NCBI GenBank assembly: GCA_965205485.1
Contig: OZ242180.1
Location: 2,720,001 to 2,784,000 of the forward strand
Length of the DNA stretch: 64,000 bases
DNA from: Candidatus Latescibacterota bacterium
GTDB taxonomy: Bacteria; Latescibacterota; UBA2968; GCA-2709665
Direction of reading: 5' to 3'
The position numbers were made by a program, and so were the translations under genes. Shown piece after piece: positions 10,375 to 26,920 of this stretch. The notes beneath the pieces are model-generated. The model was not told the DNA's origin. It searched no databases and saw nothing but the letters and a program-made list of their open reading frames with translations. Position 1 is the stretch's first letter; each line of letters begins with the position of its first letter.

Positions 10375-11238
10375 ATGTCCAGATGGTTACCCATACTCGT
10401 GACGCTGGCCGTCACCGGCACGTCATTCGCTCAGAGGGATTTTTCGGCGGTCGAGATCAGGTCCACCAGACTGACCGACAGCGTCTATATGCTTGAAGGC
10501 AGCGGAGGCAACATCGGCGTGTCCGTGGGCCCGGACGGCGTCCTGATTGTCGACGATCAGTTCGCGCCGCTGGCTGAAAAGATCCGCGCCGCCATCGGCG
10601 AGTTGGGTGGGGGAGCCCCGACCTTCGTCCTGAATACGCACTACCATGGCGATCATACCGGCGGGAACGCGTATTTTGGAGAGGAAGGCGTCATCGTCGC
10701 GCACCGGAACGTCCGCAAACGCCTGGCGGCCAGACGTGTCAACGACAGGCCGTTACCCGAAGCCGCCCTGCCGGAAATCACATTCGATGGCGGACTGTCG
10801 ATTCATTTCAACGGCGAAGAACTGCGCGTGGTCCACTTTCCGAACGCTCACACGGACGGCGACGGCGTGGTGTTCTTTACCGGATCCAACGTCGTCCACA
10901 CCGGAGACCTCTTCTTCAACGGCAGATTTCCGTACATCGACCTTCGCGGTGGCGGAGACGTTCAGGGTTACATCGAAGCCGTGCGGTCTCTCCTGAAACA
11001 AATCCCGCGGGATGCGCGTATAATCCCCGGTCACGGCCCGCTCGCCGTCCCGGACGATCTGAGGATTGCGCTTGAGATGCTGGAAACGTGCACGAACCTT
11101 GTCAAGACGTCCATCGCGGCCGGAAAGACGCTGGAGGAAATCCAGGCCGCCGGCGTGCCCGAGAGATGGCAGTCGTGGGGCCAGGGTTGGATGAGTACCG
11201 ACCGCTGGCTCTCGATCGTCTACAACAGCTACAAATAA
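10375..11238 (+). CDS. MBL-fold metallo-hydrolase, secreted
   Basis: THYHGDHTGGN, HTDGD, HTGD, PGHG; signal peptide. Confidence 0.9.
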   Translation: MSRWLPILVTLAVTGTSFAQRDFSAVEIRSTRLTDSVYMLEGSGGNIGVSVGPDGVLIVDDQFAPLAEKIRAAIGELGGGAPTFVLNTHYHGDHTGGNAYFGEEGVIVAHRNVRKRLAARRVNDRPLPEAALPEITFDGGLSIHFNGEELRVVHFPNAHTDGDGVVFFTGSNVVHTGDLFFNGRFPYIDLRGGGDVQGYIEAVRSLLKQIPRDARIIPGHGPLAVPDDLRIALEMLETCTNLVKTSIAAGKTLEEIQAAGVPERWQSWGQGWMSTDRWLSIVYNSYK

Positions 11239-11308
11239 CCAGGATTCATCAAAACGGCCGACGCGAGATACGGCCGCAAGGCGTCCATTTTTCTGAGGAG
11301 GCACACCG

Positions 11309-11647
11309 ATGATTATGACCACCACACCGGGTATCGAAGGCAACGATGTGACCACCACACCGGGTATCATCCGTGATTACAGGGGCATCGTCACCGGCGA
11401 GGCGATCCTCGGTGCGAACATCTTCAAGGACTTCTTCGCCGGCATTCGCGACATTGTTGGCGGGCGATCCGCGGCGTACGAAAAGGAACTGAAGCAAGCC
11501 CGCGAGATCGCATTTTCGGAGATGGAGGAAGCTGCCAGGCAGGAGGGCGCCAACGCCGTCGTGGGCATCGACCTGGACTATGAAGTCGTTGGGGATGGCA
11601 GCATGCTCATGGTCTCGGTCAGCGGCACGGCCGTGACAACCGACTGA
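11309..11647 (+). CDS. YbjQ/UPF0145 family protein
   Basis: [38 protein letters not shown]. Confidence 0.9.
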
Positions 11648-11913
11648 CCGGCGCCGCCGATGAGGAAGCCGGTGTGAGGGTGGGGCGGACATTCCTGTCT
11701 GCCCACGTATGCCAGGCCGAAACATCGGGGTCCTGTGTCCGGACATACGCCGGGTCCTGTGGAAACCGCGCAATTGATCGGACTGGCGCCTCAGGCCTGC
11801 TGGGGCGACCCTCCGGTCGCCCTTGAATTGTCATCGCTTCTTGCATCGGTTACGGAAATCCGCTATGATTTAATGAATTCATCGTTGAAACCTATTCACC
11901 TCGAGAACGGCCA

Positions 11914-12276
11914 ATGGGCGCGACTTACGTTGATGTAACCATCCGCAACCCCGCGGATCCGGAACGTTATTGGACCGGGAAATTTCTCGTCGATACAGGC
12001 GCATTCGACTCGCTTGTACCCAGGGCTCGGCTCGATGCGATCGGACTCACGCCAAGGGGCCGCCGCGAATATGTACTTGCGGATGGAAAGCCCATTGCCA
12101 TGGACATAACAATTGCGGAACTGGAGTTTGAAGGAGAAGTCGTCGGCGGGACAATCGTGTACGGGGACGAAGGCGCCGAACCGTTGCTCGGTGTGACCGC
12201 ACTGGAGTCCGGCGGATTCGAGGTCGACCCTCGCAATGAACAGCTCAAGCGGCTGCCGGCCGTTTTGTTGAAGTGA
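11914..12276 (+). CDS. Clan AA (retropepsin-like) aspartic protease
   Basis: FLVDTGA, PLLGVTALES. Confidence 0.85.
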   Translation: MGATYVDVTIRNPADPERYWTGKFLVDTGAFDSLVPRARLDAIGLTPRGRREYVLADGKPIAMDITIAELEFEGEVVGGTIVYGDEGAEPLLGVTALESGGFEVDPRNEQLKRLPAVLLK

Positions 12277-12423
12277 TGCAGTGTCTCCATGCGCTGCAAC
12301 ATGGCTGATGAATGGTAGTCGACGCAAAGTGGGCAACCACAAGGGTTGCCCCTACCAAATCATCCCGATGCGCAGTTTCCGAAGGGGCGACCAGCCGGTC
12401 GCCCCTTCGACTTTATTCTACGC

Positions 12424-12457
12424 TGTCGCAATACCTGCGACAATCCCTTCTTACGTT
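12424..12457 (+). promoter_or_regulatory. Palindromic operator plus -10 upstream of the WYL gene
   Basis: TGTCGCA-ATACC-TGCGACA then 9 nt then TACGTT. Confidence 0.7.
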
Positions 12458-12474
12458 TATGTGGAGGGTTTCAG

Positions 12475-13446
12475 ATGGAACGCACAATGACCCGCGCCGA
12501 ACGTCTAAAGGCGATCGAGACTTATCTCTATCAATCGGCGGGCGGCAAGAAGGCCACGGACATCGCCTCGCGGTTCGCCGTACACCGAAGTACGGTGTAC
12601 CGGGACATTCAGTCGCTGGGCGAATCCGGGTCGCCGATATGGGAGGACAACGGGCAGTTCGGCGTGTTGAAGGAACGATATCTGACCACCGTCCGTGTCA
12701 ATCTGCACGAGGCCCTGGCGCTCTACCTGGCCGCTCGCCTGCTCTCTGCGCACAGCGACGAACACAATCCGCACGTCGTCTCTGCGCTCGAAAAGCTCGC
12801 AAGCGCAATGCCGGAGTCCATCGGCGAACACATCAACCGAACGGCCGCGGTTGCCGACAGGCGCAGGCCCGATCGCGATCACATCCGCATTCTGGAAACG
12901 CTCACGCGCGCCTGGTCCGAACGCAGGCAGGCGCGTATCGTCTACCACAACCCACAGACCGGCGAAACCACCGATCGTACCGTAGATCCCTACTTCATCG
13001 AGCCTTCGCCCGTGGGATACGCCTGCTACGTCATCGGTTACGACCATTTGCGGCAGGACATCCGAGAGTTCAAAGTGGAGCGAATTGAACGGGCGACGCT
13101 GCTGGAGACAAGATTCAAGACGCGGGTTGGCTTCGATCCGTACGAATTCCTCGAGCACTCGTGGGGCATCATGGGCGGTAACGAGGTCGTGGACGTCGTA
13201 CTCCGGTTTTCGGAGAAGGTCGCGTACCGCGTTCGGGAATCGGACTGGCCGGGGGTGGTGGACGTGACGGACGAGCCCGACGGCGGCTGCCGGCTGCGGC
13301 TCAGGGTGAAGCACACGCTCGAGATGAAGCCGTGGATCCGAGGCTGGGGGCCGGAGTGCGAGGTGCTGGCGCCGGAGGAGCTGAGAAACGAGATCGCCGA
13401 GGATATGATCAAGGCGGGGAGTGTGTATGAATCAGGATCCGTCTGA
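12475..13446 (+). CDS. HTH-WYL-WCX transcriptional regulator
   Basis: HTH (DIASRFAVHRSTVYRDIQSL), WYL core (RTVDPY..YVIGYDHLRQDIREFKVERI), WCX (EMKPWIRGWGPECEVLAPEELR); RBS GGAGG. Confidence 0.92.
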   Translation: MERTMTRAERLKAIETYLYQSAGGKKATDIASRFAVHRSTVYRDIQSLGESGSPIWEDNGQFGVLKERYLTTVRVNLHEALALYLAARLLSAHSDEHNPHVVSALEKLASAMPESIGEHINRTAAVADRRRPDRDHIRILETLTRAWSERRQARIVYHNPQTGETTDRTVDPYFIEPSPVGYACYVIGYDHLRQDIREFKVERIERATLLETRFKTRVGFDPYEFLEHSWGIMGGNEVVDVVLRFSEKVAYRVRESDWPGVVDVTDEPDGGCRLRLRVKHTLEMKPWIRGWGPECEVLAPEELRNEIAEDMIKAGSVYESGSV

Positions 13447-13687
13447 GATCAGAGACAGTAGGGGCGACCGGCCGGTCGCCCGCACAAAAACAACGCCAGC
13501 GCGAGGTTTCGGTTGTGGGCGGCCCTCCTATCTCTTCCGTCTTCGCCTCTTGCTGGCGGCCGGGGATTTGTTGGGTGCTACGATCCGTACTTCCCCATGC
13601 GCCGCCGGTTGACTTCCCTCTGATTGTCTGACCCGCATTTCGATAAACGGCTGTGAATTCCAACTTCTGTTGCACAGCCGCAACCTC

Positions 13688-13722
13688 TGTGACGCAAAAT
13701 GCGACATTTTTCACCATAAAAT
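13688..13722 (+). promoter_or_regulatory. Degenerate WYL-type site plus -10
   Basis: TGTGACGCAAAA-TGCGACA then 10 nt then TAAAAT; one perfect half-site. Confidence 0.5.
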
Positions 13723-13747
13723 CAACAAATAGGACGAAGAATTCATC

Positions 13748-14443
13748 ATGAGTTCAACAATATATCCGTATATTGTACTCTCACGAACAACGGCACTGAA
13801 TGGCAGAACACCAAACTGGTTTGGGAACAATCAAGTTAAGGATGCCCGCATTGGCGACATCAATAGTGTGGGAATGGAGGACAGTTTGACGAGAGCCGAA
13901 ATCATCGCGCGTCGCCGCGAGTTCGAGATCCCAGGATACAAACACAAGTACAAGACGCTTGCAGACGTCGGGTTTGACGGCGAGTGGGTTACGCCATACC
14001 AGATCGTGTCGAGTTCCGAGACGGGTCCGGTACTGGTCGCACACTACTGGCTGGATGCCCCACAAGTCAATAGACATCGCCAGGTGCTGAAGGAGCACGG
14101 CTGGCTGCCGGGTATTCCCTTCAACAAAGTACTGACGCTGGCCCTTGAGCGGGCGAACCTGACCCGCGAGGACATCTATGTCACGCAAGCGTTTCATCTG
14201 TTGCCGTACAAGCAGTGGCCGCCGTTCCGTATACGACACATCGATGAATCGTTTGACAGAATCACACGGCACGAGTGCGCGGGTCGGACGGTCATCGCAC
14301 TCGGTACGGTCGCGCAACGCGCCTGTCGCCGCGCCGGCGTCGAGGCCATCGAATGTATCAGCCCAAGCGCTCGCCTGAGTTGGGAGTACAAGGTGGAAGA
14401 ACTCGCTAAGGCGCTGAAGACCGCGTTGGTGCGGATCGGATGA
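13748..14443 (+). CDS. Hypothetical protein with UDG-superfamily-like C-terminal motifs
   Basis: REDIYVTQAFH, VIALGTVA, ISPSAR (HPSxR-like); start may be 13874. Confidence 0.5.
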   Translation: MSSTIYPYIVLSRTTALNGRTPNWFGNNQVKDARIGDINSVGMEDSLTRAEIIARRREFEIPGYKHKYKTLADVGFDGEWVTPYQIVSSSETGPVLVAHYWLDAPQVNRHRQVLKEHGWLPGIPFNKVLTLALERANLTREDIYVTQAFHLLPYKQWPPFRIRHIDESFDRITRHECAGRTVIALGTVAQRACRRAGVEAIECISPSARLSWEYKVEELAKALKTALVRIG

Positions 14444-14688
14444 GACGCCGGATGACACAGACAATCGTGACGACAGTTACGAACCGGTCGAGCAGCCTAA
14501 GGGTTGTGATGGCGCCGGCGACTGTTCTGATGCCCTGACGAGATCCTTGTAGATGGCCGAGAAGTTGCACATCGGACGGCATTCAAAAGCTCAAGCCGTA
14601 AACCGATGCCTGTCACATCTCCTGCTTTTCTGTTTTTCGGACGTCTTCGATGCCTGTCAACATCGTTTTTGCTTTTGGCTGTTCGCGG

Positions 14689-14802
14689 ATCGCTTCCGTT
14701 CACTTCGGTGGGGGAGCGGATTGAAACGTAGGATCGGTCGGCTCGAAGGTCGTCACCGGCCCCAAAATCTCCCCGCACTTCGGTGGGGGGCGTGGATTGA
14801 AC
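14689..14802 (+). CRISPR. Degenerate orphan CRISPR-like mini-array (2 repeats, 1 spacer)
   Basis: ATCGCTTCCGTTCACTTCGGTGGGGGAGCGGATTGAAAC, a ~39-nt spacer, ATCTCCCCGCACTTCGGTGGGGGGCGTGGATTGAAC; TTCG-loop hairpins and ATTGAA(A)C ends; no cas genes in window. Confidence 0.55.
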
Positions 14803-14914
14803 TTCGCGGCGGGACCCAGGTAGTACTGCGCGCCAATTCAACCTATACATTCGGGTCCAGCCTGTGATGTTCGGACCGGGTATTGATCCAATTTCATGAT
14901 GAAATGAGGCGACT

Positions 14915-15541
14915 ATGGATATGACCGAAATCTCCAGTCTGCTGGCACTGACGCTCGGGGTCGGCTGGGCTAGCGGGATCAATCTGTATGCAACCGTGTT
15001 TACTTTGGGGCTCGCCGGTTTAACAGGATACGTGGAATTACCTGATCAGCTCGATGCGATCCAGAATCCCTGGGTACTTGTCGCCGCAGGTTTGATGTAC
15101 CTTGTGGAGTTCGTCGCCGACAAGATCCCTGGATTCGACACGGTTTGGGATGTCATCCACACCTTCATTCGCGTTCCGGCGGGTGCTCTGATGGCTTTGG
15201 GGGCAACGGGTGATCACGGCTTGGCCCTGGATATGACTGGTGGACTGGCCGGCGGTATCATGGCCCTGAATAGCCACGCGACCAAGATGGGTTCGCGCGC
15301 GGCCATCAATACGAGCCCTGAGCCGTTTTCCAACTGGGCTGCATCAATCACAGAGGACATATCCGTCGTGGGCGGCTTGTGGCTGGCACTGAACCACCCC
15401 TGGACGTTTCTCGGTTTGCTGGTGTTGTTCGTCGTGCTCTCCGTTTTTTTGTTGCGGATAATCTGGTCAACTCTTAAAGCGGCGATTCGGAAAGTACGAT
15501 CCCGATGGCGTTCCGATCTCGCCCATAGTAGGGGAGAATGA
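14915..15541 (+). CDS. DUF4126 family membrane protein
   Basis: GWASGINLYAT, EFVADKIPGFDTVWD, NTSPEPFSNWAASITED. Confidence 0.85.
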   Translation: MDMTEISSLLALTLGVGWASGINLYATVFTLGLAGLTGYVELPDQLDAIQNPWVLVAAGLMYLVEFVADKIPGFDTVWDVIHTFIRVPAGALMALGATGDHGLALDMTGGLAGGIMALNSHATKMGSRAAINTSPEPFSNWAASITEDISVVGGLWLALNHPWTFLGLLVLFVVLSVFLLRIIWSTLKAAIRKVRSRWRSDLAHSRGE

Positions 15542-15643
15542 GCTTGCCGTTCCAATACGTGATTTGTCCCCCCGAGAATTCTCGACCTACCGCTGAGCAT
15601 CAACTGGCCCGCCCGCCGGCCCGGCCATAGGGACGCTTACTGG

Positions 15644-15663
15644 GAATCTTCCATCAGAACAAG
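15644..15663 (+). repeat. 20-bp island motif, copy A
   Basis: GAATCTTCCATCAGAACAAG. Confidence 0.85.
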
Positions 15664-15676
15664 GATTGAGACGATT

Positions 15677-15853
15677 ATGCGAAATAGACAAGACACCGCT
15701 GGTATGCTGGTCTGGCATCCCGACGGCAAGCCCTACTCGCCGGCCGACTACGAAAAGGCGGGCATGCCGGTGCCCACGCCCGAGCAGCTCGCCCACTGGG
15801 CCGAGACCGACCGGTGGATCGCCGAACTCAAAGCCAAGTACGACACCGATTAG
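15677..15853 (+). CDS. 58-aa hypothetical protein, paralog A
   Basis: MRNRQDTAGMLVWHPDGKPYSPADYEKAGMPVPTPEQLAHWAETDRWIAELKAKYDTD; 39/58 identical to 19003-19179. Confidence 0.75.
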   Translation: MRNRQDTAGMLVWHPDGKPYSPADYEKAGMPVPTPEQLAHWAETDRWIAELKAKYDTD

Positions 15854-15901
15854 CCCCCCTCCGTCGTCAACTCAACCACGTAGTAGTATTCCACTCGCTC
15901 A

Positions 15902-15921
15902 GAATCTTCCATCAGAAAAGG
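15902..15921 (+). repeat. 20-bp island motif, copy B
   Basis: GAATCTTCCATCAGAAAAGG. Confidence 0.8.
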
Positions 15922-15959
15922 GATAGAAATGCATGCCGGCAATGGCCGGTGCCTCGTGA

Positions 15960-15979
15960 GAGTCTTCCACCAGAACAAG
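15960..15979 (+). repeat. 20-bp island motif, copy C
   Basis: GAGTCTTCCACCAGAACAAG. Confidence 0.8.
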
Positions 15980-16101
15980 TGGAGACGTTGTTACACCGGC
16001 GGCAATAATTACCGACATGCGTGTCGGGGGACCTGGTCTATGAGGATCCCAACGACAGTCCATTCTATTGCAGTGAGCCTCGATCGAAGTGAAGGAATTG
16101 A

Positions 16102-17433
16102 ATGACCGCAGCCGGCAGGGAGAACGACCTAGCGCCCGTTGAGCGATGTCTTTCCATCGGCACCTGGAACATGGATCACTGGAAACGGACCACGCAGCAG
16201 CGCCGGGACGCATGGGATTACCTCAAAACAAACCGCAATGCTGACGTGATGCTGCTTCAGGAAAGCGTCGCGCCGGCTGGTATCCCCCGTACCAGTTTCG
16301 TGCACCGAGAGATCGCTGGCCGGCGGCCATGGGGATCATCGGTTGTGGCGTTCGCGGATGACGTGGAAATCGAGGAGGTCGATGCCGTACGCACCCGCTA
16401 CGGCGCCACGAGATACAGCTTGCTGGGAAGCCTTCCGGGTTCCTTAATCGTCGCTCGAATCCACGTGCCTGAAATCGGCCCTATTACGTGTGTGAGCGTC
16501 TATGGTACGATAGATGGCGTCTATGCGCAGACAACGATGTTTCGTGTTATTGCCGACCTGGTTCCGCTGTTTGACTCGGGCGACGGCAGGCGGGTCATTC
16601 TGGGCGGCGACTTCAATATTACAACAGCGGCGTCTCCCGAAACGCCCGAACGGCCTCGATACCGCGCCATCTTGTCTGGCATCGAATCACTCGGACTCGT
16701 CAATCTCGCCGAGACGGCAAAGTGTCGCCCGGACTCCATGCCTGGTTGTCCGTGCAGTGCCGATGATTGCCGCCACATCCGAACGTTCGGCGACAATCCT
16801 GGCACGCAGCTCGATTGGCTGTACGCCACGGAGGAACTCGCACGCAGGTGCACACGCCTGTCCGTCGATCACACCGTTATGGGTACAATGAGCGACCACG
16901 CGCCGCTCGTTGCCGAGTTTCGAGTCCCCCCGCTCGAGGGCAGCGGGGTTGTCGATCCGGATTCATTCGTCCGGGAACTTGCGGTCCGCACTGGTTCCGA
17001 GTGTGCTCGAATCGCGGAAGAACTGATCGCGTGGGCGCACTGGAAGCACGCGGAGCTGGATCGATGGGACCGGAAGGCCGTGTCCTTTGACCGATTGCCG
17101 ACGCGTGATAGCGATCCGCCGGAAATCTGGTTCCAGCTCGATAAAGGACGTCCGGGTCGAGAGAGGAATCTGTTGCAATGGACCTTCAGCATCAAGGCAC
17201 ACGGGCGCGTCGTCGTGCAATTTCGATGGTTGACCGGCCCGTTCAAACAGATGAGTGCGCGGGAAGAACTCTGGTCAGATTTGTGCCGGATTGAAGGCGT
17301 GTCTCTGGACAAGAATCTGAATAGCAAACCGAGCTTTTCCTTAAAGGCCCTGGCGCAGCCTGATCGCCTCGAGCAGTTTCAGCAGGTGTTTTCCAATATG
17401 ATTGACAAAACGCTGCAGGGAAACGCGGATTGA
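16102..17433 (+). CDS. Endonuclease/exonuclease/phosphatase (EEP) family protein with extra C-terminal domain
   Basis: IGTWNM, DVMLLQE, GGDFN, QLDWLY, SDHAPL, plus about 165 aa C-terminal domain. Confidence 0.85.
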   Translation: MTAAGRENDLAPVERCLSIGTWNMDHWKRTTQQRRDAWDYLKTNRNADVMLLQESVAPAGIPRTSFVHREIAGRRPWGSSVVAFADDVEIEEVDAVRTRYGATRYSLLGSLPGSLIVARIHVPEIGPITCVSVYGTIDGVYAQTTMFRVIADLVPLFDSGDGRRVILGGDFNITTAASPETPERPRYRAILSGIESLGLVNLAETAKCRPDSMPGCPCSADDCRHIRTFGDNPGTQLDWLYATEELARRCTRLSVDHTVMGTMSDHAPLVAEFRVPPLEGSGVVDPDSFVRELAVRTGSECARIAEELIAWAHWKHAELDRWDRKAVSFDRLPTRDSDPPEIWFQLDKGRPGRERNLLQWTFSIKAHGRVVVQFRWLTGPFKQMSAREELWSDLCRIEGVSLDKNLNSKPSFSLKALAQPDRLEQFQQVFSNMIDKTLQGNAD

Positions 17434-17502
17434 GACTGAACAGGACCCTTGAATCGTCGTCGTGAATGATCCGAGGAATACAAACTATGTGAAGGAGGTT
17501 CC

Positions 17503-18093
17503 GTGGACACGAGTGGTTTATCCGAATTCAGCCGTGATCTGGAGTCCTTGATCGGCAAGCCGACCGATCTGCGCCCGTTCGTTTGTGAAGGTTCTCCACT
17601 TGAATGCGAAGTGTTCCTCGTAGGTTTCAATCCTGCGAGCCCCATGTCCGTAGACTTTTGGGATTTCTGGAAGGACAGCTATGGATTCAACAAATGCGCC
17701 TGGTTCGAGAAGTACAAGTACGAGCGACGGAACCGCCCGCTGAAGCGTGGAAGGACGAGAAGGAATGAAGTAAGCAACACGCGTAGAACCATAGATGTCG
17801 TCGTCGAAAGTGCCAGACCCGTCAAATGCCTCGAAACGAACATCTACGCGAATGCGACTGAGCAGAAATCGGACCTGAAAGCAAAAGACAGAGTCACGGC
17901 GCCCTTCGACTATCTCCTGCACGAGGTCGCACCTAAGCTGGTGATTGCCCACGGCAGGGATGCCGCGAGTTACTTGCAAGGGCAGGACCTACCGTGCGAG
18001 CTTAAGTGTGTTCCACATTTCGCACTCGGTTGGTACGAGCAAAGCGCGCGAGATCTGGGTGTGTGTATTCGCAGGTATTGCGAAGGAAAGTAA
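17503..18093 (+). CDS. Uracil-DNA-glycosylase-superfamily-like protein
   Basis: VFLVGFNPA, LETNIY, PKLVIAHGRDA, VPHF; RBS AAGGAGG before GTG. Confidence 0.65.
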   Translation: MDTSGLSEFSRDLESLIGKPTDLRPFVCEGSPLECEVFLVGFNPASPMSVDFWDFWKDSYGFNKCAWFEKYKYERRNRPLKRGRTRRNEVSNTRRTIDVVVESARPVKCLETNIYANATEQKSDLKAKDRVTAPFDYLLHEVAPKLVIAHGRDAASYLQGQDLPCELKCVPHFALGWYEQSARDLGVCIRRYCEGK

Positions 18094-18167
18094 CCGCACC
18101 TCGCCGCGCAGACGTCAACTGATTGGATTTTTGGTTCAGGCTGATAGCCAATAGCTTGCTTCTCTGT

Positions 18168-18201
18168 TGTCGCAATTCCTGCGACAGATCCGGTTTATCT
18201 T
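18168..18201 (+). promoter_or_regulatory. Second palindromic WYL-type operator plus -10
   Basis: TGTCGCA-ATTCC-TGCGACA then 9 nt then TATCTT; 18/19 identical to 12424-12442. Confidence 0.7.
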
Positions 18202-18357
18202 GATATGGGTTGAGCAATATTGGTGAAACATCCGATGAGATGTACGGCTCTGTTCTTGGCGGGCAGGAACAGGACGGGAACGATTTGATGCCGCACGCTT
18301 CCGCATGACCGTTTTCGGGTACAGTCTCGAAGGTACAACCGGGTGGAGGGCTGAGCG

Positions 18358-18906
18358 ATGCCAAATGGAGGATCCGACTGTTGCGGGACCTGCTGGTTCA
18401 ATCGAAGGAATCAGGGCGAGCGCGACTGGTTGGCGCACGCAGACGAGAGTATACCGCCCTTTTGCGAGATCAGGGACATCGAGGTGGAGGATCCGTTCTA
18501 CACCTATTGCGCGAACCATCCTCATCGCCGGCCCGATCGCGACACCATTCCCATCGGGCCGGTGATGCGCCACGGCGGATGGAAAGAGGAACGGCGCGTC
18601 GAGGACGGTCAAACCATTTTATCCAGTTGCGAGAATCCTCGTTACGTCTGGAAACCCTCGCCGGATTCGGAAGAGATTCGCCAACACCTGCTGAATCTGC
18701 TGAATAGCATTTTCGAGCACATGTCAAGGGACCGGTATCCGATAGGCGCCGGTCTGGGAGAGACGATTATCCGGCAACTTGGCGAGTTTCGGGAGGAACG
18801 GTCGGTGAAGTATCTCGAATGGATACGCGAGAATCTCGAAGATTCGCTGGATTTCATGGCAGTCGCTGCCAACGAGGCGCTGGGCAAGATCCAGGAAAAT
18901 GAATAA
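18358..18906 (+). CDS. Hypothetical protein, Cys-rich N-terminus and helical (HEAT-like) C-terminus
   Basis: MPNGGSDCCGTCWFN...FCEIR...YTYCANHPH; RBS GGAGG. Confidence 0.65.
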   Translation: MPNGGSDCCGTCWFNRRNQGERDWLAHADESIPPFCEIRDIEVEDPFYTYCANHPHRRPDRDTIPIGPVMRHGGWKEERRVEDGQTILSSCENPRYVWKPSPDSEEIRQHLLNLLNSIFEHMSRDRYPIGAGLGETIIRQLGEFREERSVKYLEWIRENLEDSLDFMAVAANEALGKIQENE

Positions 18907-18969
18907 GCAGTGTACCCGGACGACAACACAGACCTTTTCGGAGAGATCGTCGACGGCTCGTTCCGCTGA

Positions 18970-18989
18970 GAATCTTCCTTCAGAACAAG
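18970..18989 (+). repeat. 20-bp island motif, copy D
   Basis: GAATCTTCCTTCAGAACAAG. Confidence 0.85.
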
Positions 18990-19002
18990 GATCGAAACAG
19001 CT

Positions 19003-19179
19003 ATGCGAAACAGACAAGATAGCGCAGGCATGCAGTGCTGGCACCCTGACGGCACGCCCTTCTCTGACGCCGACTACCGCCGGGCAAACCTCCCTGTGCC
19101 CACACCTGCGCAGTTGGCACACTGGGCCGAAATGAAACGGCTCATCGATGAGATGAAAGCACGCCACGACACCGAGTAA
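19003..19179 (+). CDS. 58-aa hypothetical protein, paralog B
   Basis: MRNRQDSAGMQCWHPDGTPFSDADYRRANLPVPTPAQLAHWAEMKRLIDEMKARHDTE. Confidence 0.75.
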   Translation: MRNRQDSAGMQCWHPDGTPFSDADYRRANLPVPTPAQLAHWAEMKRLIDEMKARHDTE

Positions 19180-19188
19180 GCCCGGCGA

Positions 19189-19208
19189 GAATCTTCCGTT
19201 AGAACAAG
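19189..19208 (+). repeat. 20-bp island motif, copy E
   Basis: GAATCTTCCGTTAGAACAAG, 10 nt before the DUF6361 ATG. Confidence 0.85.
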
Positions 19209-19218
19209 AGAGGACACA

Positions 19219-20430
19219 ATGCAGGCGACGTTGACCTGGCTCGATCTGACGGCAAGCGACCGGGACAAGATGCGGCGGGTGCTGGACCTGTTCAATGAGC
19301 AGGGCACCCTCGATGAGATGGGACTCGGAAACCTTCGAGACGCGATTTCTGACGCGCTGTTTCCCGGGACCTCTTATATCCAGACGCGGCTGCGCTATGT
19401 ACTCTTCATTCCCTGGATCTACCAGAGGCTGGAGGCGCGGCGCGTCAGGAGCGTGGATGTAGCACAGGCCGCGCGCAAGGCGGAAGTCGATCTAATCGGG
19501 CGGCTTGAGCAGGGCCAAGACAAGAAAGGCATCATCGGCGTACTCGCTGGCCATTCGCTAGTACGGTTGCCGAGTTCCATATACTGGAGTGCACTCACTC
19601 GATGGGACGTCTTCAGGCCTCAACAGAGCCAGAGTTGGTATCACACGAACTTCGATACCCTGTTGGAAGGTCGCAGCGACGTGGGGCGGGCAGACGATCC
19701 GGGCGTGATCTGGAGCCGAGATGCACACTGGAATCCGCGTATGCCAGAGCCACCGGACGGCTTTCCTGAGGGAGCATCCTTTGCGTTGACCCGCGACGAG
19801 GCGGACTTTCTTTGTAGCCGCCTGGAGGAAACGTGTGCCGGCACGCTTCTGGCGTGGCTGGCCCGCACTGGAACCGATTCGCCCGCGAAAGATTCCTGGA
19901 AGGATCCGGACGCTCTCCGTGCACCTCAGGATATCCTTGATACCGTCGAACTGGCACGGCGTTTTTCACTACATGTCGAGGGCATGCCGCTGCTCTACAA
20001 TCTGGTTGTGGCGGAACACCGCCGCGAGATGCTTGACTCTGACGATGAGGGCGAATTGATCAGCTCGTACCGTACAGAGCTCACTGAGTGGGCGGACTCT
20101 GAGGCGGAAGAAGCTCAACCATTCGATCCGGATCCGCTGTGGGAATTGGTAGCCCGACGCGGTGGGCGCACTCCACATCATCAACGACTCTTCATTCAAG
20201 ATTGGTCTCGACAGATTGCCAAGTTGGATGCCGACATGATCGCCGACGACCCACGGCTGCGGGCGATGGTAACCGAACGCGAGTTAAACCTGAAGGGAGC
20301 GCGCGCACGACTTGGAAACCGTAGTCGCCTGATGGAATGGACGCCAGGGGTAGGTGTTGGTCGGATGGACTTTCGCTGGGTTCGCGTCCGGCAGTTTCTT
20401 ACGGACCTTCACAGGGGGTTGGCCGCCTGA
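19219..20430 (+). CDS. DUF6361-like protein (first gene of Azaca-like operon)
   Basis: LTWLD...GTLDEMGLGNLRDAISDALFPGTSYIQTRLRYVLFIPW, RLPSSIYWSAL, MDFRW. Confidence 0.75.
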   Translation: MQATLTWLDLTASDRDKMRRVLDLFNEQGTLDEMGLGNLRDAISDALFPGTSYIQTRLRYVLFIPWIYQRLEARRVRSVDVAQAARKAEVDLIGRLEQGQDKKGIIGVLAGHSLVRLPSSIYWSALTRWDVFRPQQSQSWYHTNFDTLLEGRSDVGRADDPGVIWSRDAHWNPRMPEPPDGFPEGASFALTRDEADFLCSRLEETCAGTLLAWLARTGTDSPAKDSWKDPDALRAPQDILDTVELARRFSLHVEGMPLLYNLVVAEHRREMLDSDDEGELISSYRTELTEWADSEAEEAQPFDPDPLWELVARRGGRTPHHQRLFIQDWSRQIAKLDADMIADDPRLRAMVTERELNLKGARARLGNRSRLMEWTPGVGVGRMDFRWVRVRQFLTDLHRGLAA

Positions 20431-22265
20431 TGTTATCGCCCGATACGCGATCCACCGCCTTCGAATTGCTACGCCCGCCCTGCGGGTACCAACTCGACCT
20501 CGCGGTGCTTTCCACTTACACGCTCGATCTTGAAACACTGCTCGTACTCCCCTTGTCGGTACTTGCACATTCCGATGGTGGACTGGATGAGTTATTGGCC
20601 GATCCGCTCTGTCTGCAACAGGCAATCCGGGATGCGGGTGACCGCATTCATGCTTTCGTGGACGAATCCGGAATCGCGATTCCACGCAACGCGCGATCGC
20701 TGTACTCGATGCTTGAGTCGAGCGTCCACGCCGTACGTGCCCCGAATGGCGGCGCATTCCACCCAAAGGTGTGGGTGGCTCGATTCGTTGCCTCTGATGA
20801 GGATGCTGAAGACCTATTGCGCGTTGCGATCCTGTCGCGAAACCTGACCTTTGACCGTTCCTGGGACATCGCACTGACGAGCGAGGCGTCCATCCGGGGC
20901 CGTCGACGTGTCGCCGTGAGCAGGCCGCTACGCGACTTTCTGCTGACATTGCCGCAACTCTCAACCAGCCCCGTACACGAGAACGTCGTAGCACGTCTCA
21001 AGGCATTAGCCGAACAGGTTTCGCGAACCGCTTTCCCTGCCCCTGACGGCTTCGCCGATCCGGTCGCGTTCCATTTACTCGGATTGCAGAAACGCCGCCG
21101 TCTGTGGCGCCCGCCGTCTACCGGGTATCGAACACTCGCAGTATCGCCGTTCATCAGCCGGACCGGACTGGAGGTGGTCGGGGAGTTGAGCGGTAACGAC
21201 CGGATGCTGGTGAGCCGACAGGAGGAACTCGACAGACTCGGTCAGGATGCGCTGGCTGAATGGAACGATGTATTCGTCCTTTCAGATGCCGCGCATGGGG
21301 AATCCGACGAAAGTCTGGCTGATGAAAACCAACCCGCAGCTGGTGGAATTGATCGCCCGTCGGGGTTGCATGCCAAGATGATCGCCGTGGAGCATGGTTG
21401 GGACGTTACCTGGTACGTGGGTTCCGCGAACCTGACCTCGTCTGCATTAAGCGGCAGCAACGTCGAAATGGTGGCGTCCGTCACCGGCAGGAAGGGACGC
21501 AAGGGGGGCCACAGCGGTCATGGTATCGATCGGTTCCTTGACGCCGGATTTCGGAAGCTGTGTGTGAAGTATGAGAGAGTCGAACCGGAGAAAGAAGACC
21601 CAGCCATCACCGATTCGCGAAATCGTCTTGAGGCGGCACGGGACGCCCTGTTGAGGACTGACCTGTGCGTGAATTGCGTTTCCGCAGGTGACGCCTGGAC
21701 CTTGACGATTGACGGAGACGGTATTCCGTGCGCCGACGATGTCGAGGTCGTAACTTGGCCCGTCTCCGTCGCCGAAGATCAAGCCTTGCTGCTGGAGAAG
21801 GCGGTCAGTTGGAGGTTGCCCGTTGCGCGTCTTACGGCATTCATCGCCTTTCGGCTGAGCGTCGACGTCGGTGGCGTGGACGACGTCAGAATGACCCTTA
21901 GTCTACCCGCTCAAGGAATCCCGGAGGATCGCATGCATCACGTGCTCCGGGGCCTGTTGGACAGTCCGGAGAAGTTCCTTCGATTCCTTCGGGCATTGCT
22001 CGGCGGGCTCGATTCCGTTTTTGGCTGGGCGCAGGAACCCAGGCAGGGAGACGCGGCCTTCGCCTGGGGAATCGGGGAGGGTGGCGAGACATTGCTCGAC
22101 GACCTTGTCCGCACTGCCTCAAGAGACCCCGATCGCCTGAAGCCGGTACGTCGCCTGATCGACGACCTTCGGAAGACGGAAGAAGGGCGCCGTATCGTAC
22201 CTGACGAACTATTCGGTATCTGGACGGCAGTCGAGGAGGCACTCGCACCGGAGCCACGACTATGA
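20430..22265 (+). CDS. Phospholipase D-family nuclease-like protein
   Basis: Two HxK motifs (FHPKVW..SRNLT; LHAKM..GSANLT); TGATG coupling to the upstream gene. Confidence 0.8.
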   Translation: MLSPDTRSTAFELLRPPCGYQLDLAVLSTYTLDLETLLVLPLSVLAHSDGGLDELLADPLCLQQAIRDAGDRIHAFVDESGIAIPRNARSLYSMLESSVHAVRAPNGGAFHPKVWVARFVASDEDAEDLLRVAILSRNLTFDRSWDIALTSEASIRGRRRVAVSRPLRDFLLTLPQLSTSPVHENVVARLKALAEQVSRTAFPAPDGFADPVAFHLLGLQKRRRLWRPPSTGYRTLAVSPFISRTGLEVVGELSGNDRMLVSRQEELDRLGQDALAEWNDVFVLSDAAHGESDESLADENQPAAGGIDRPSGLHAKMIAVEHGWDVTWYVGSANLTSSALSGSNVEMVASVTGRKGRKGGHSGHGIDRFLDAGFRKLCVKYERVEPEKEDPAITDSRNRLEAARDALLRTDLCVNCVSAGDAWTLTIDGDGIPCADDVEVVTWPVSVAEDQALLLEKAVSWRLPVARLTAFIAFRLSVDVGGVDDVRMTLSLPAQGIPEDRMHHVLRGLLDSPEKFLRFLRALLGGLDSVFGWAQEPRQGDAAFAWGIGEGGETLLDDLVRTASRDPDRLKPVRRLIDDLRKTEEGRRIVPDELFGIWTAVEEALAPEPRL

Positions 22266-25200
22266 AGCGTCCTTGCGTCAGCGCGAGTCTGAAACCGCTA
22301 AAGTCCTTTCAGCGTCGTACCGTGGAGCACGCCTTCCACCGCCTGTTCACTGCGGAAGACGGAACCGGGCGTTTTCTGGTGGCTGACGAGGTAGGCCTCG
22401 GGAAGACGCTGGTCGCCCGGGGTATCATTGCCCGTACCATCGATCACCTCTGGACCGACGTCGAACGGATCGACATTGTCTACATTTGCAGTAACGCCAG
22501 CATCGCGCGTGCCAATCTGCCAAAGCTCAGGATCGGAGGCGCCGAAGAACGGTCGTTCGCATTAGCGACCCGTCTCACGATGTTGGCCACGCAACTGGCG
22601 CGTAAGGAAGGTGAACCTGGTCTGATCGACAGCAAGCTGAACTTCGTCAGCTTCACGCCGGGCACGTCCTTTAACATGGGGCAATCCGCAGGGCAGCGCC
22701 AGGAGCGGGAGGTGCTGTTTCAACTGCTCGATCCGCTGACAGAGCGGCGCACGGCGCTTATGAACTTCCTGCAGGGATGGATTACGGACAGAGATGACTG
22801 GCGCTGGTACCTTAAGAACCGCCCCCGCCCTATCGAAGACATGATACGTCGAAGGTTTGAGAATGCATTTTGCAAGCGCCACGGTCTGGAGGACAGATTT
22901 CAAGGCATCCTTGGTGCGTTCCGCCGCTACCGGGTAAATTGGCCTGACGATGTGCGGTACCAGCGGGACCGGCTCATATCCGAGTTGCGCCGCCTGCTGG
23001 CCGGAGTGTGTGTCCGCGCCCTCGAGCCGGATCTCGTGATCATGGACGAGTTCCAGCGCTTCAAGTCACTGCTCGACACAAGTGGCGTAGAGCGAGACCC
23101 TGCAGCGCACCTGGCTCACGAGTTGTTCCAGGCCAAGGCGCATGACGGTAAGCGCGTGCGGACGCTCTTGCTCTCCGCGACTCCGTACAAGCTCTACACC
23201 GCAGATGCGGAGATTGAGCAGGAAGACCATTACGAAGACTTTCTGGCAACTACCGAATTCCTCCTCGGCGATGAAGACGGTCGCGTTGAAGAGCTTAAAC
23301 GCCAATTGTCGCGTTTCGGGTCCGCGTTGAAGGGCACGGCGGCCGGAGAACCGGATAAGGCCAAGAGAATCGAACGCGCGAAGCACGAGGTCGAGGTATC
23401 ACTTAAGAACGTGATGGCACGAACCGAGCGTGTCGCAGCCAGTGAAGAGCACGACGCGATGGTGGCGGAGGTGCCGAGCAACGTGACCGTGACCTCAACC
23501 GATGTGCGCCAGTACCTGGCCGCAGATGCCCTGTTTAGGGCTATCGGTGACCGCGATCCGATGCCGTTCTGGAAGTCGGCGCCGTACCTTGCTCATTTCA
23601 TGCACGGTTACAGGTTCAACGAACTACTCGCAGAGGCGATTAAGTCACCGAGAAAGATCGTCGAGGTCTTCCAGCAGCACGAGTCTGCGTTCTTGAAGGC
23701 TGCGACGATTCGCTCCTGGGAGAGCATTGACCCCGGAAACGCGAAGCTGCGTGAGATGGTTGGGGAACTGATCGACGAGGGAATGTGGCGACTTCTCTGG
23801 ATGCCGCCGACGCTTCCGTACTGGCCGCTTGAAGGACCGTTCAAGGGAACGGCACAGGCAACGAAACGCCTGTTGTTCTCTGCATGGAACGTCGTGCCCG
23901 ACGTTGTCAGCGCCGTTCTGAGCTACGAAGCGGAACGTCTGATGACACGTAGTCCACGCGGCCGGATTGAATCCTACGAAAGACTCGTCGAGCAGCAGAG
24001 GCCGCTCTTGAGACTTACGCAGTCGGTAGTCGGTCGACGGTCACGACATCGTCTACTGCTTTTGCTCTTGCCCTGCCTTCCGCTGGCAGATGGGGCCCAT
24101 CCTCTTGATGCGCCGCCCGGCCAGGATCGCCGGGCGTGGGTCCGGTCGCGAGTCGACGAAATTCTTTCTGACACAGAGCTTCCGAACCCAAAGCAAGGTA
24201 ATATCGACGACAGGTGGGAATGGATCGCGCCGCTCCTGATAGATCCTGAACTGCGCGGTTTCCTTCGGGCTTGGGTGAACGGCGGGCTTCCCGGGTTGTC
24301 AGCAAATGAGCGACTACCGCAGCCAAACCCGGAAGTCTTTGGCGCTTACGTAGATGATTTGCTTGACGTCGAATTGCGTACCCTAGGCCGGCGACCACCG
24401 CATCTTGCAGAATTGCTCACCGACGTCGCACTTGGCTCGCCCGCAATACTCGCAGCACGCAGTCTAAGAAATAGGACGAATATCGGCGACGGTACGCGAC
24501 GTCGGCTCGCCGTGATGATTTCACTTGCGTTCTGGAGCCTCTTCAATCAGCCGGCTGTAATCACACTGATGCGTCAACTGGCTTCAGATTCGGCCGAAGC
24601 CAGGAATGAATCAGCCTACTGGCGTCTTGTGCTCGGCTATTGCCGGCAAGGCAACCTGCAAGCAGTACTGGACGAACAATGGCACCTGCTTTGGGACCAG
24701 GAGTCGTGGTCCGGCGACGCCAGCGGCGACGAAACCGCCGAAGGGTGCGCCCGCAAACTCATCCAGGTTGTGCGTCCAATGCGTGCTCGTGTCCATGCAA
24801 GGTTTTTCGAGATTAAGGGTGCAGGAGGAAATGGATCGACGCTTGCAAGTGATGAAGTCCGCCTTCGTACGGCTTTCGCGCTGCGCTTCGGCCACATCAG
24901 CACGGATGAAGGCGTTCACATCAGCCAGGACGCCGTTAGAGACGCCTTCAATAGTCCGTTTCGTCCCTTTGTACTTACCAGTACATCGATTGGGCAGGAA
25001 GGGCTCGATTTTCATCCTTGGTGCCACCGCTTGGTCCACTGGAACCTGCCCGGCAATCCGGTCGATCTCGAACAACGCGAAGGCCGCATCCATCGATACA
25101 AGGGACACGCGATCCGTCGAAATGTCGCTGCCCGCCATGCGCATGACGCGCTGACGTCATGGAGGGCCGGAGACGACATTTGGATACGGATGTTCGAGTT

Positions 25201-25471
25201 AGCCGACCAGGCGGCGCGAGCTTCCGGGGAAAGTGATCTGGTACCTCACTGGATCGCCCCCGGAGATTGCTTGGTACAGCGCCATGTGCCACTCCTGCCA
25301 TACACGACGGAGATCGAGGCGTTCAAACGCCTCAAACGTCAACTCGCGGCCTACCGGGTTGTCTTTGGGCAACCCCGCCAGGAGGAACTCGTTGCGCTGC
25401 TCGACCGATCTGACGTCGACGTCACGAAATTCAAAGAATGGGCGATCGATCTCTCGCCACCAGAGATCTGA
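22262..25471 (+). CDS. SF2 helicase
   Basis: ADEVGLGKT, MDEFQRF, LSATPY, TSIGQEGLDFH, EQREGRIHRY; ATGA overlap. Confidence 0.9.
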   Translation: MKRPCVSASLKPLKSFQRRTVEHAFHRLFTAEDGTGRFLVADEVGLGKTLVARGIIARTIDHLWTDVERIDIVYICSNASIARANLPKLRIGGAEERSFALATRLTMLATQLARKEGEPGLIDSKLNFVSFTPGTSFNMGQSAGQRQEREVLFQLLDPLTERRTALMNFLQGWITDRDDWRWYLKNRPRPIEDMIRRRFENAFCKRHGLEDRFQGILGAFRRYRVNWPDDVRYQRDRLISELRRLLAGVCVRALEPDLVIMDEFQRFKSLLDTSGVERDPAAHLAHELFQAKAHDGKRVRTLLLSATPYKLYTADAEIEQEDHYEDFLATTEFLLGDEDGRVEELKRQLSRFGSALKGTAAGEPDKAKRIERAKHEVEVSLKNVMARTERVAASEEHDAMVAEVPSNVTVTSTDVRQYLAADALFRAIGDRDPMPFWKSAPYLAHFMHGYRFNELLAEAIKSPRKIVEVFQQHESAFLKAATIRSWESIDPGNAKLREMVGELIDEGMWRLLWMPPTLPYWPLEGPFKGTAQATKRLLFSAWNVVPDVVSAVLSYEAERLMTRSPRGRIESYERLVEQQRPLLRLTQSVVGRRSRHRLLLLLLPCLPLADGAHPLDAPPGQDRRAWVRSRVDEILSDTELPNPKQGNIDDRWEWIAPLLIDPELRGFLRAWVNGGLPGLSANERLPQPNPEVFGAYVDDLLDVELRTLGRRPPHLAELLTDVALGSPAILAARSLRNRTNIGDGTRRRLAVMISLAFWSLFNQPAVITLMRQLASDSAEARNESAYWRLVLGYCRQGNLQAVLDEQWHLLWDQESWSGDASGDETAEGCARKLIQVVRPMRARVHARFFEIKGAGGNGSTLASDEVRLRTAFALRFGHISTDEGVHISQDAVRDAFNSPFRPFVLTSTSIGQEGLDFHPWCHRLVHWNLPGNPVDLEQREGRIHRYKGHAIRRNVAARHAHDALTSWRAGDDIWIRMFELADQAARASGESDLVPHWIAPGDCLVQRHVPLLPYTTEIEAFKRLKRQLAAYRVVFGQPRQEELVALLDRSDVDVTKFKEWAIDLSPPEI

Positions 25472-25615
25472 AACGATCAAAAGTAGCTGAGAAGTTTCGG
25501 AATTTGGGCGTTGTGCGGGATTCCATACACGCCATTTGAGACACTAAACGCCCGTCGCGAAGACAAACTCGCTGTTCGATTTCTCCTCACTTCGGAGAGA
25601 GGAGCGAATTGAAAC

Positions 25616-26140: not shown

Positions 26141-26376
26141 CGACGCCGGCAAATCAGGTGTGACGCTGAACAATGGAAAGAGGCAGCATGTCGGATCGTC
26201 CGCTCGGAAATCAGGTGGCGGTCGTTGACGGTCCGGATCCTGTCCAGGGGGACGTTCTCGAATATGCCTCCAGGATCGTTGCGGCCCCCGTTGTCAGGCT
26301 CACGCCTCATTGGAAATTCGCGCTCCTTTCAGGTTAATACTTCGCAGGACAACGCAACTCATTTTCAAGGAGGAAT

Positions 26377-26808: not shown

Positions 26809-26920
26809 CCGTCCATTTCCGGGGCGGATGAAAGGAATGTGCCGCGTATCGATACGCTGTACGATACGGCGTCGCGAATACGTCTCACGCCGGCTTTGGC
26901 CTGGCTGGTGAGTGTGTCGT

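Follow-up and report, generated by a model that had tools for sequence, protein, structure and literature searches.

In a 64,000-nucleotide (nt) stretch of the genome of Candidatus Latescibacterota bacterium (contig OZ242180.1; C1:2720001-2784000 of a single-contig genome of 5,125,460 bp; hereafter the window), we analyzed a 20-base motif that recurs five times at gene starts. Judged by comparison with related genomes, a type I-B CRISPR repeat of 37 nt has this motif as its core, and the five copies are solitary, full-length repeats in one orientation. With modest confidence, we favor the reading that these copies are orphan I-B repeats, left behind or reused from the trailer end of an array, which now stand as leaders between genes. 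The initial annotation, made from the letters of the window, had instead proposed the recombination site of an undescribed gene-capture system; that proposal gives way, because the same sequence is a type I-B CRISPR repeat, found in sister genomes in ordinary arrays next to cas genes.

Our pattern search for GAATCTTCCNNNAGAACAAG, in which up to three mismatches were allowed, returned five sites in the window, all on the forward strand, at positions 15644 (0 mismatches), 15902 (2), 15960 (1), 18970 (0) and 19189 (0). As only 0.20 sites were expected from shuffled sequence and none of 100 shuffles reached five, the five co-oriented copies that had been annotated are borne out. At two mismatches or fewer, the whole genome holds these five forward matches and no reverse match, and a control motif made by reading the pattern backwards has none; at three to four mismatches, 130 matches are scattered over the genome (60 on the forward and 70 on the reverse strand), none of them in the window region. 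Likewise, an ATG or TTG does lie 7 to 13 nt behind each copy, as had been described, the distances from the motif end being 13, 7, 8, 13, and 10 nt in order of position. The TTG behind the third copy opens a frame of only 6 codons, and the ATG behind the second copy opens a 58-amino-acid (aa) open reading frame (ORF; 15929-16105) that reads through the third copy; this ORF has no match in Pfam, PADLOC or NCBIfam and is probably not a gene.

The 20-bp motif that had been described is thus present, but the conserved element is longer, namely 37 nt, reaching from 8 nt before to 9 nt after the motif, which occupies repeat positions 9-28. We refer to the five resulting units, all on the forward strand, as A to E. 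Unit A (15636-15672) is a full-length type I-B repeat, 34/37 identical to the array repeat of the sister genome G006 and with GATTGAGAC as its handle part, and unit D (18962-18998) is likewise full length, with the handle GATCGAAAC; each is separated by 4 nt from the ATG of a 58-aa gene, the first such gene for unit A and the second for unit D. Unit B (15894-15930) is a decayed repeat with two core mismatches and the handle GATAGAAAT. It forms a mini-array with unit C (15952-15988), a decayed repeat with one core mismatch that has lost the handle part, and the two are separated by a spacer-like stretch of 21 nt (15931-15951) that contains GCAATGGCCGGTG. In unit E (19181-19217) the core is intact, and the last 9 nt, where the handle would stand, read AGAGGACAC, a sequence of the Shine-Dalgarno type. 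Unit E fills the 39-nt gap between the second 58-aa gene and zacA (1 + 37 + 1 nt), so that the last site does abut the DUF6361 operon, as had been noted. The G+C content of units A and D is 46%, versus 60% for the genome.

To place the motif, we searched 101 related genomes for the 20-mer, the genus set comprising 15 genomes. In three genomes of the same genus, G009, G006, and G003, it recurs in regular arrays with a period of ~74 bp (72-77 bp), with 71 (on the reverse strand), 38, and 38 matches, respectively, at no more than two mismatches; 65 repeats were listed for G009 across two fetched loci. The array repeats are 37 nt long and have the 3' end GATTGAAAC, an ending also read as ATTGAAAC. 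In G009 the array adjoins cas6b, a cas8b-like gene, cas7, cas5, cas3, cas2, and cas4, which were recognized by their Pfam matches (Cas6b_N/C, DevR/Csa2, Cas5, Cas3 HD and helicase, Cas2, Cas4), the cas8b-like gene having a weak match to CXXC_CXXC (E=9.3e-4). The order cas6b-cas8b-cas7-cas5-cas3-cas2-cas4 beside an array identifies the G009 locus as a type I-B CRISPR-Cas system.

Type I-B repeats are described as unstructured, with Cas6b cutting 8 nt before the repeat-spacer junction (PMC5965381, accessible text). The units share the sequence, the length, the lack of structure, and the 3' handle of such arrays. More specifically, units A, B, D, and E and the terminal array repeat of G009 folded no better than their shuffles (z +0.45 to +1.68), the four window units scoring worse than their own shuffles (z +0.45 to +1.21) and unit C slightly better (z -1.05). 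The TTC-N5-GAA dyad that had been pointed out is therefore present in the letters but is not a structural feature, and a hairpin at this dyad was rejected on the fold versus shuffle scores. Arrays with unique spacers and cas neighbors in the relatives, together with the absence of a fold, agree with a type I-B repeat, the cleavage position being taken from the cited source. What sets the window apart from an I-B array is that its repeats lie 58 bp to 3 kb apart, with genes as "spacers", and that no Cas6b is encoded.

A profile built from the lone units (nhmmer) found 294 copies in the fetched loci, and 77 distinct solo units remained once arrays were set aside; 14 of the 15 genus genomes contributed to this set, as did a single genome from a different genus. 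In their alignment, the information content rises at -8 and falls at +29 exactly, the flanks are flat, and no conserved promoter- or operator-type element is present outside the 37 nt. An exact 25-mer was found in 21 stretches of genome_contigs, all of them from metagenome-assembled genomes titled Latescibacterota or Gemmatimonadota, and additionally in one short Tectimicrobiota-titled contig, the fetched parts of which closely match the region of G011 in layout and sequence. Across the genus, Cas1 was detected in 10 of the 15 genomes and Cas6b_C in three (G003, G006, and G009); the Cas1 matches of G001, G003, G006, and G008-G014 adjoin the fetched unit loci. In G011 (G011:C5 ~3031000-3037400), an array of ~73 repeats of an I-B repeat variant (5' part CCGGTCGAAACAC...) was seen beside a type I-C system. 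Cas6b was not found in G011, and this array is either an I-B orphan or dependent on a different nuclease.

In the genome of the window, searches with the Cas1, Cas6b_C, and Cas6 families gave no match, nor did tblastn with the cas3, cas5, cas6b, cas7, cas8b, cas2, and cas4 proteins of G009; a k-mer scan of this genome revealed no array, its single candidate region being a repeat inside protein-coding sequence. Neither the cas genes nor the array that a functional CRISPR-Cas system comprises were thus found. The surroundings of such a system are recognizable all the same. Window positions 13886-14440 are 79% identical to the gene that immediately precedes cas6b in G009, so that the 231-aa ORF at 13748-14443 (forward strand), which has a UDG-superfamily match, marks the position of the cas operon in G009. 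From the matches to G009 flanking genes, the window region is the counterpart of the CRISPR-cas surroundings, with the cas operon and the array missing, and the absence of both would most simply be explained by loss.

A second kind of repeat remains in the window as well. Upstream of the DUF4126 gene, a type I-C-like mini-array (14689-14802, forward strand) consists of a hairpin repeat (14689-14727), a 39-nt spacer (14728-14766), and a second, decayed hairpin repeat (14767-14802), and it stands in a genome that lacks cas genes. Both repeats fold as hairpins (-12.1 and -13.9 kcal/mol) and both end in GGATTGAA(A)C, as the I-B units do. Arrays of I-C-type hairpin repeats, ending in GGATTGAAAC, occur in G008, G010, G011, and G013, and the I-B and I-C repeats of the genus have their last 10 nt in common. 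The array of G013 adjoins Csd1 (Cas8c), Cas5, Cas4, Cas1, and Cas2, which marks it as a type I-C system; a hairpin repeat in arrays beside cas8c and cas5 without cas6 is what a type I-C assignment calls for. Just upstream of the window's mini-array there is a length polymorphism, in that one contig of run X1 lacks the 44 nt at 14604-14647, which lie between two copies of a 12-nt direct repeat. We also observed, in G011 (~17809-17700 of the fetched locus), a hybrid mini-array upstream of a gene for a nuclease of the endonuclease/exonuclease/phosphatase (EEP) family, composed of an I-B unit, a 37-nt spacer, and an I-C hairpin repeat. It is kept in a second record, and no target for it was found in the fetched loci.

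The relation of the solo units to start codons is best seen across the genus. An ATG or GTG ORF of at least 40 aa begins within ~60 nt of the repeat end in 51 of the 77 solo units, and in 22 of these 51 the ORF starts 3 to 5 nt past the repeat end (the distance being 4 nt in 14 cases, 5 nt in 6, and 3 nt in 2). Most of these 22 genes belong to one family of 57- to 68-aa small proteins, and both the N-termini and the 4- to 5-nt linkers vary among the unit-fused genes. The small-gene modules stand in tandem at 219- to 258-bp spacing; in several, the stop codon lies 0 to 1 nt before the next repeat, and some of the ORFs read on into the repeat that follows and are stopped there by the TGA of its handle, which gives protein tails such as ...FHQNKD. 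In G011, the last repeat of the 73-repeat array is followed by 5 nt, a small gene, and then a solo unit, so that this gene, directly behind the last array repeat, occupies a spacer position. In sister species the island starts where a type I-B or I-C array has its trailer (far) end. A trailer of the form GCAGTGG(T/C)CGGTG recurs in G009, G001, G012, G003, and G007, where it stands behind the terminal repeat of the array and behind the last solo unit; the GCAATGGCCGGTG of the B-C spacer resembles this G009-type trailer with two mismatches, a likeness that is not significant by itself, and from it unit B may be an old array end.

Units precede larger genes too. In one metagenome contig, 4 nt separate an intact unit from the ATG of zacA. 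The unit before zacA has the same handle-less form in G006 as in the window, and decayed forms in G005, G010, and G014. Where a unit precedes zacA or an Nmad3 gene, GAGGA-type sequences have taken the place of the handle; before the Nmad3-domain genes this sequence is GAGGACTTT, with the ATG 4 nt on. Units also stand before genes for EEP nucleases of 286 to 291 aa.

All genes between 12346 and 26831, like all units, lie on the forward strand, in the order WYL regulator, UDG ORF, I-C-like mini-array, DUF4126, unit A, 58-aa gene, units B and C, EEP nuclease, 196-aa gene, 182-aa gene, unit D, 58-aa gene, unit E, and zacA-zacB-zacC. The conserved left flank of the island is a gene for an HTH-WYL-WCX regulator (12346-13446), whose best PADLOC match (2e-87) covers the 318 most N-terminal positions of a "Cas3c" profile. 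The cargo comprises a 443-aa EEP family nuclease (16102-17433), a 196-aa weakly UDG-like protein (17503-18093), and a Cys- and His-rich 182-aa protein without a family match (18358-18906). The 196-aa gene is 69% identical (window 17503-18090) to a gene downstream of the G009 array, the product of which matches Pfam UDG below the cut-off (E=7.7e-4). The 182-aa gene recurs in eight or more sister genomes, where its DNA is ~82% identical; relative to Azaca, it lies upstream in G000, downstream in G005, and on both sides in G006, where one copy is partial. The Azaca defense operon itself (19219-25471) consists of zacA (19219-20430, DUF6361), zacB (20337-22265), and zacC (22262-25471), and PADLOC matched nearly full profiles for all three products (ZacA 1.6e-122, ZacB 2.7e-159, ZacC E = 0). 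In its longest form the zacB ORF shares 94 nt (20337-20430) with zacA, and the PADLOC ZacB match begins at residue 32; zacB probably has its true start downstream of 20337. In the relatives, further island cargo includes SRAP, a methyltransferase, DUF4432, GmrSD, a NucS-like protein, peptidase S51, an MTES_1575-type restriction enzyme with a helicase, and an ADP-ribosylglycohydrolase. A search of Rfam with window positions 11000-27500 gave no match at E up to 1, and no tRNA was found between 10000 and 30000.

The two 58-aa genes (15677-15853 and 19003-19179), which had been annotated as bracketed by the motif, are real paralogues of 67% identity. They belong to the small-protein family described above, which counts 25 distinct ORFs of 57 to 68 aa with the window pair included, has invariant W, G, P, Y, and P residues (WHPDGTPY...Y..AG.PVPT), and shares the core W-x2-DGTP-x5-Y-x3-G-x-PVPT. 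Searches of Pfam, PADLOC, and NCBIfam found no match for the 58-aa proteins. An AlphaFold2 model of the small protein (mean pLDDT 78.7) has one long C-terminal helix, and it had no match in the PDB at E up to 0.001. A profile search of a 1.8-billion-protein library gave 75 matches, about half of them small proteins by listed length; most of the long ones align in several short stretches, and the long match P0014, a WD40-repeat protein on scanning, was taken as false. Two longer relatives carry HTH-like domains (HTH_73 and AbiEi_4). A metagenome scan for the distant family yielded eight loci, one or two of them with true small-protein genes, and the clear distant locus (L053) has no repeat or handle-like sequence upstream.

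The initial annotation had likened the motif copies to cassette junctions and had called for a scan of related genomes for variable gene content, and such variation was found. The flanks (window 11002-14458 and from 26897 on) are kept, and the blocks between them differ in G002, G005, G006, G008, and G010-G013, where EEP, weakly UDG-like, 182-aa, Azaca, and small-gene blocks are shuffled. For example, G010 has at least five small-gene modules and Azaca, without the EEP, 196-aa, and 182-aa genes; in G005, an I-C-like repeat is followed after 38 nt by the zacA-preceding unit, and the 182-aa gene lies downstream of Azaca; and G002 lacks Azaca. In G006 (G006:C73 ~10368), a solo unit is fused mid-gene into the weakly UDG-like gene at a shared GAAAC, the 5' half of the gene being deleted, which looks like a microhomology junction at the repeat 3' end.

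Junction reads had also been suggested as a check. We aligned metagenome contigs from four public runs to window positions 14400-20400 and did not use uncovered parts as evidence. Contigs join 14727 to 15644, 15669 to 19225, and 17433 to 18963, and they also contain a unit-40 nt-unit arrangement and a tandem 58-aa module; others have loose ends behind 15665/15669 and 18996/18998, as well as at the start codons 18358 and 19219. Contigs thus do join and diverge at unit ends, but the joint sides are short (23-34 nt, essentially the unit itself) and the contigs stem from mixed communities, so that they document adjacency in related organisms and not events in this genome. The description as cassette junctions therefore stands insofar as gene starts are marked and content varies, in the synteny blocks as well as at the contig joints, whereas a recombinase is not needed for it. 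As to recombinases, the genome has only two tyrosine recombinase matches, whose positions (1.88 Mb and 2.86 Mb) fall outside the window; serine recombinases were not searched.

The unit before zacA illustrates decay. Between unit E and the corresponding unit of G006, 7 of the 37 positions differ, versus 94-98% identity in the flanking 150-nt stretches, and the G000/G006 block of 8.5 kb around this unit is 90% identical overall; in G014 and G010 the unit carries a deletion.

Regulatory signals and RNA targets were looked for as well. A consensus promoter scan found 3 promoter-like sites versus 2.3 expected, which is chance level, and a terminator scan found 7 terminator-like sites versus 4.0 expected; neither set explains the units. 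The spacer of the I-C-like mini-array had no partial target in the genome (best 24/36, chance level), and the B-C spacer had 11 matches of at least 17/21, versus ~4 expected, none of them near an island promoter. Seven spacer-like window sequences, including the 36 nt behind each unit, gave chance-level seed matches without a TTC/TTA protospacer-adjacent motif (PAM). In the relatives, for which the fetched loci were covered, 74 spacer-like queries gave 4 matches (2 of them a reciprocal pair of duplicated units) versus 1 with shuffled queries. The seed complementarity to a promoter beside a PAM that a regulatory RNA resembling CRISPR RNA (crRNA) would have is thus not seen in the window or in these fetched loci. 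The initial annotation had offered a shared operator, promoter, or leader as its alternative, and of these the leader comes close to the reading that we favor, while the operator and promoter find nothing conserved outside the 37 nt and a promoter scan at chance.

Under the favored reading of orphan, trailer-derived repeats, the trailer end of an array would have come to carry genes in spacer positions, in the order repeat, 4-5 nt, ATG, ORF, stop, 0-1 nt, repeat. In relatives that bear it, Cas6b would cleave each unit 8 nt ahead of the 3' end, a processing predicted here from sequence, which would release single cargo mRNAs from a pre-crRNA-like transcript, each with the 8-nt crRNA tag and a 12- to 13-nt leader. 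In the genome of the window, which has no cas genes, the units can no longer serve as crRNA processing sites. Here, units A and D may persist as unstructured, low-G+C leaders in which AAGGA of the repeat lies 11 nt before the ATG, and units B, C, and E would be decaying, the handle of unit E having apparently been replaced by a stronger Shine-Dalgarno sequence. The variation in gene content would then arise from repeat-repeat recombination and microhomology events, as in CRISPR arrays, with no dedicated recombinase. A bolder version holds that arrays took up whole genes as spacers, with type I-B repeats around small ORFs and complete defense operons (Azaca, nucleases, Nmad3-type genes), that a crRNA nuclease cuts the transcript into translatable mRNAs with the crRNA tag 4-5 nt before the AUG, that the expression of other defense systems is thereby tied, after transcription, to the state of CRISPR-Cas, and that the repeats are cassette-shuffling joints; we put this forward tentatively and think it rather unlikely.

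Several observations weigh against the reading of the units as trailer-derived leaders. Perfect handles occur in 3 of 13 units in Cas6b-positive genomes and in 26 of 60 in Cas6b-negative ones; handles are thus no rarer without Cas6b, which indicates that Cas6b cleavage is not what keeps most units intact. Split by Cas1, the counts are 27 of 63 in positive and 2 of 10 in negative genomes (Fisher p = 0.30), the genomes being kin and not independent. Many solo units lie downstream of type I-C arrays, a system without Cas6, and most of the unit-rich genomes have I-C, not I-B. The 11 nt from AAGGA to the ATG exceed the 4-8 nt of the Shine-Dalgarno sequences of neighboring window genes, so that a role in ribosome binding is presumptive. 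Across 7 orthologous pairs, the units are 86.9% identical versus 88-90% for the mostly coding flanks, which fits neither free decay nor strong constraint. Finally, it is synteny that suggests a loss of the cas genes, as opposed to their never having been present.

It is possible, though in our estimate fairly unlikely, that the units exert live control in this family of islands. In cas-bearing relatives, the 5' end of each cargo mRNA would be cut or coated by Cas6b, or by Cas5 and Cas7 as they load onto the shared GGAUUGAAAC handle, and Azaca, the nucleases, and the small proteins would be switched by the state of CRISPR-Cas, the switch being stuck in the genome of the window. Such an arrangement would parallel, at the post-transcriptional level, the CRISPR-supervised immune systems (CRISIS), in which a crRNA-like RNA from a solitary repeat unit (SRU) pairs with a defense-gene promoter beside a TTC/TTA PAM (Shu et al., bioRxiv 10.1101/2024.12.27.630466). 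The start spacing fixed at 3-5 nt in 22 of the 51 units despite varied linkers and N-termini, and likewise before zacA in one contig, argues for it, as do the position of the island beside cas genes and arrays in relatives, the presence of Cas1 in 10 of the 15 genomes, and the last 10 nt common to the I-B and I-C repeats. A precedent is at hand as well, since the accessible text of the preprint describes solitary-unit crRNA-like RNAs that repress neighboring defense systems, places such systems beside type I cas genes with repeat-like units, and mentions possible I-B cases. In contrast to CRISIS, no promoter target lies behind any unit, either in the window or in the fetched loci of the relatives, the units abut start codons, and Azaca is not among the systems named in that text. 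Handle conservation, moreover, is unrelated to the presence of Cas6b or Cas1. The CreTA/CreR small RNA genes, which guide Cascade to a promoter (PMC9458426; bioRxiv 10.1101/2023.03.10.532045, accessible text), resemble the present units in that degenerate ectopic type I repeats, those of I-B included, are put to non-defense use; here, unlike there, we found no toxin RNA or promoter target, and the units precede ordinary protein genes.

Alternatively, the units may record an arrival, whole genes having been inserted into an array as oversized spacers; Cas1-Cas2 or recombination between arrays would have brought them in, the flanking repeat being duplicated in the process. In favor of this are the conservation that stops exactly at the repeat boundaries, the modules at the trailer end of arrays (in G011, one in the last spacer position), the contig breakpoints at repeat-spacer junctions, and the conserved trailer that in G009 stands behind the terminal repeat of the array and again behind the last solo unit. 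We nevertheless consider it improbable, as the small genes are paralogous, for which one old event followed by module duplication would suffice, and as many cargo genes lie at irregular distances of 8-59 nt from their unit. This account concerns the origin of the units and is compatible with their being leaders or relics.

That the units are operators or promoters read by a local factor, for instance the HTH-WYL-WCX regulator, which would then co-regulate the operons of the island, is in our view quite improbable. The gene of this regulator, 2 kb upstream, shares synteny with the island in G010 and G005, and copies of the motif occur in this island only. Set against this, no copy precedes the regulator's own gene, the regulator is absent from the G009 locus, which keeps its units, and nothing conserved, -35-like or otherwise, lies beyond the 37 nt; the promoter scan at chance level argues in the same direction, and an operator would make no sense in the long arrays of which the same sequence is the repeat.

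RNA decoys are a still more doubtful explanation, and one that we regard as very unlikely. The units would soak up Cas6 or Cascade subunits from a mobile element, after the manner of the RNA anti-CRISPRs (Racrs), solitary array-mimicking repeats that are known to inhibit CRISPR-Cas (PMC10651486, accessible text). Racrs, as described there, are borne by viruses and mobile elements, whereas the island here is chromosomal and syntenic, with flanks conserved across the genus. The unit sequence has no exact match in viral_contigs, the window holds no tyrosine recombinase match and hence no integrase of that kind, the units are embedded in coding operons and fused to start codons, and the host has no CRISPR-Cas to inhibit.

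An att-like site of an undescribed site-specific recombination system for cassette capture, finally, is scarcely credible: gene content does vary at the sites, yet the sequence is a CRISPR repeat in canonical arrays elsewhere, both tyrosine recombinase matches lie outside the window (serine recombinases, as said, were not part of the search), and one rearrangement junction sits at a 5-nt microhomology inside a gene and not at a second site. Nor do the units resemble an integron-type attC site, which has an integrase beside it and folds as an imperfect inverted-repeat hairpin: the units do not fold, and the window holds no tyrosine recombinase match.

Solitary repeats as such have been described. 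Single near-identical repeats outside arrays, beside cargo genes, and repeat pairs 20-60 bp apart were reported by Shmakov et al. (2023; PMC10120712, accessible text), and the lone repeats beside cargo described here, with pairs separated by 21 nt (units B and C) and 39 nt (the I-C-like mini-array), are alike. By sequence, unit A matches the sister array at 34/37 positions, and the associated array is absent from the same genome. Compared with the solitary repeat units in that text, the present set differs in its extent (77 units in the fetched loci), in the tandem repeat-ORF modules, in the placement 3-5 nt before start codons, in a genome that has neither cas genes nor an array, and in that we found no complementarity between spacers and promoters. 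Our literature search, which was limited in extent, found no description of lone repeats fused to start codons in tandem repeat-ORF modules, and the supplements of preprints may list similar loci.

So far, solitary CRISPR repeats have been known as small RNA genes that guide Cascade to promoters or as viral decoys; the described cases act, or are proposed to act, either by pairing of a spacer-like part with a promoter or as decoys. Here, lone repeats stand at the start codons of protein genes, arranged in tandem repeat-ORF modules and placed before a full Azaca operon and nucleases, and they persist in a genome without cas genes. There are signs that several of the window copies are decaying, which tempers the significance of the finding for this genome. 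If Cas proteins do cut or bind the units, crRNA-type processing would naturally control the mRNAs of other defense systems, and CRISPR-Cas would have a second route of supervision over its neighbors. For annotators and users of motif finders, the case suggests comparing unexplained repeats at gene starts with the CRISPR repeats of related genomes, and not with those of the same genome alone. Even if the units are relics only, they show that array trailer ends can turn into long-lived scaffolds of defense islands and that unstructured I-B repeats lend themselves to reuse as intergenic leaders.

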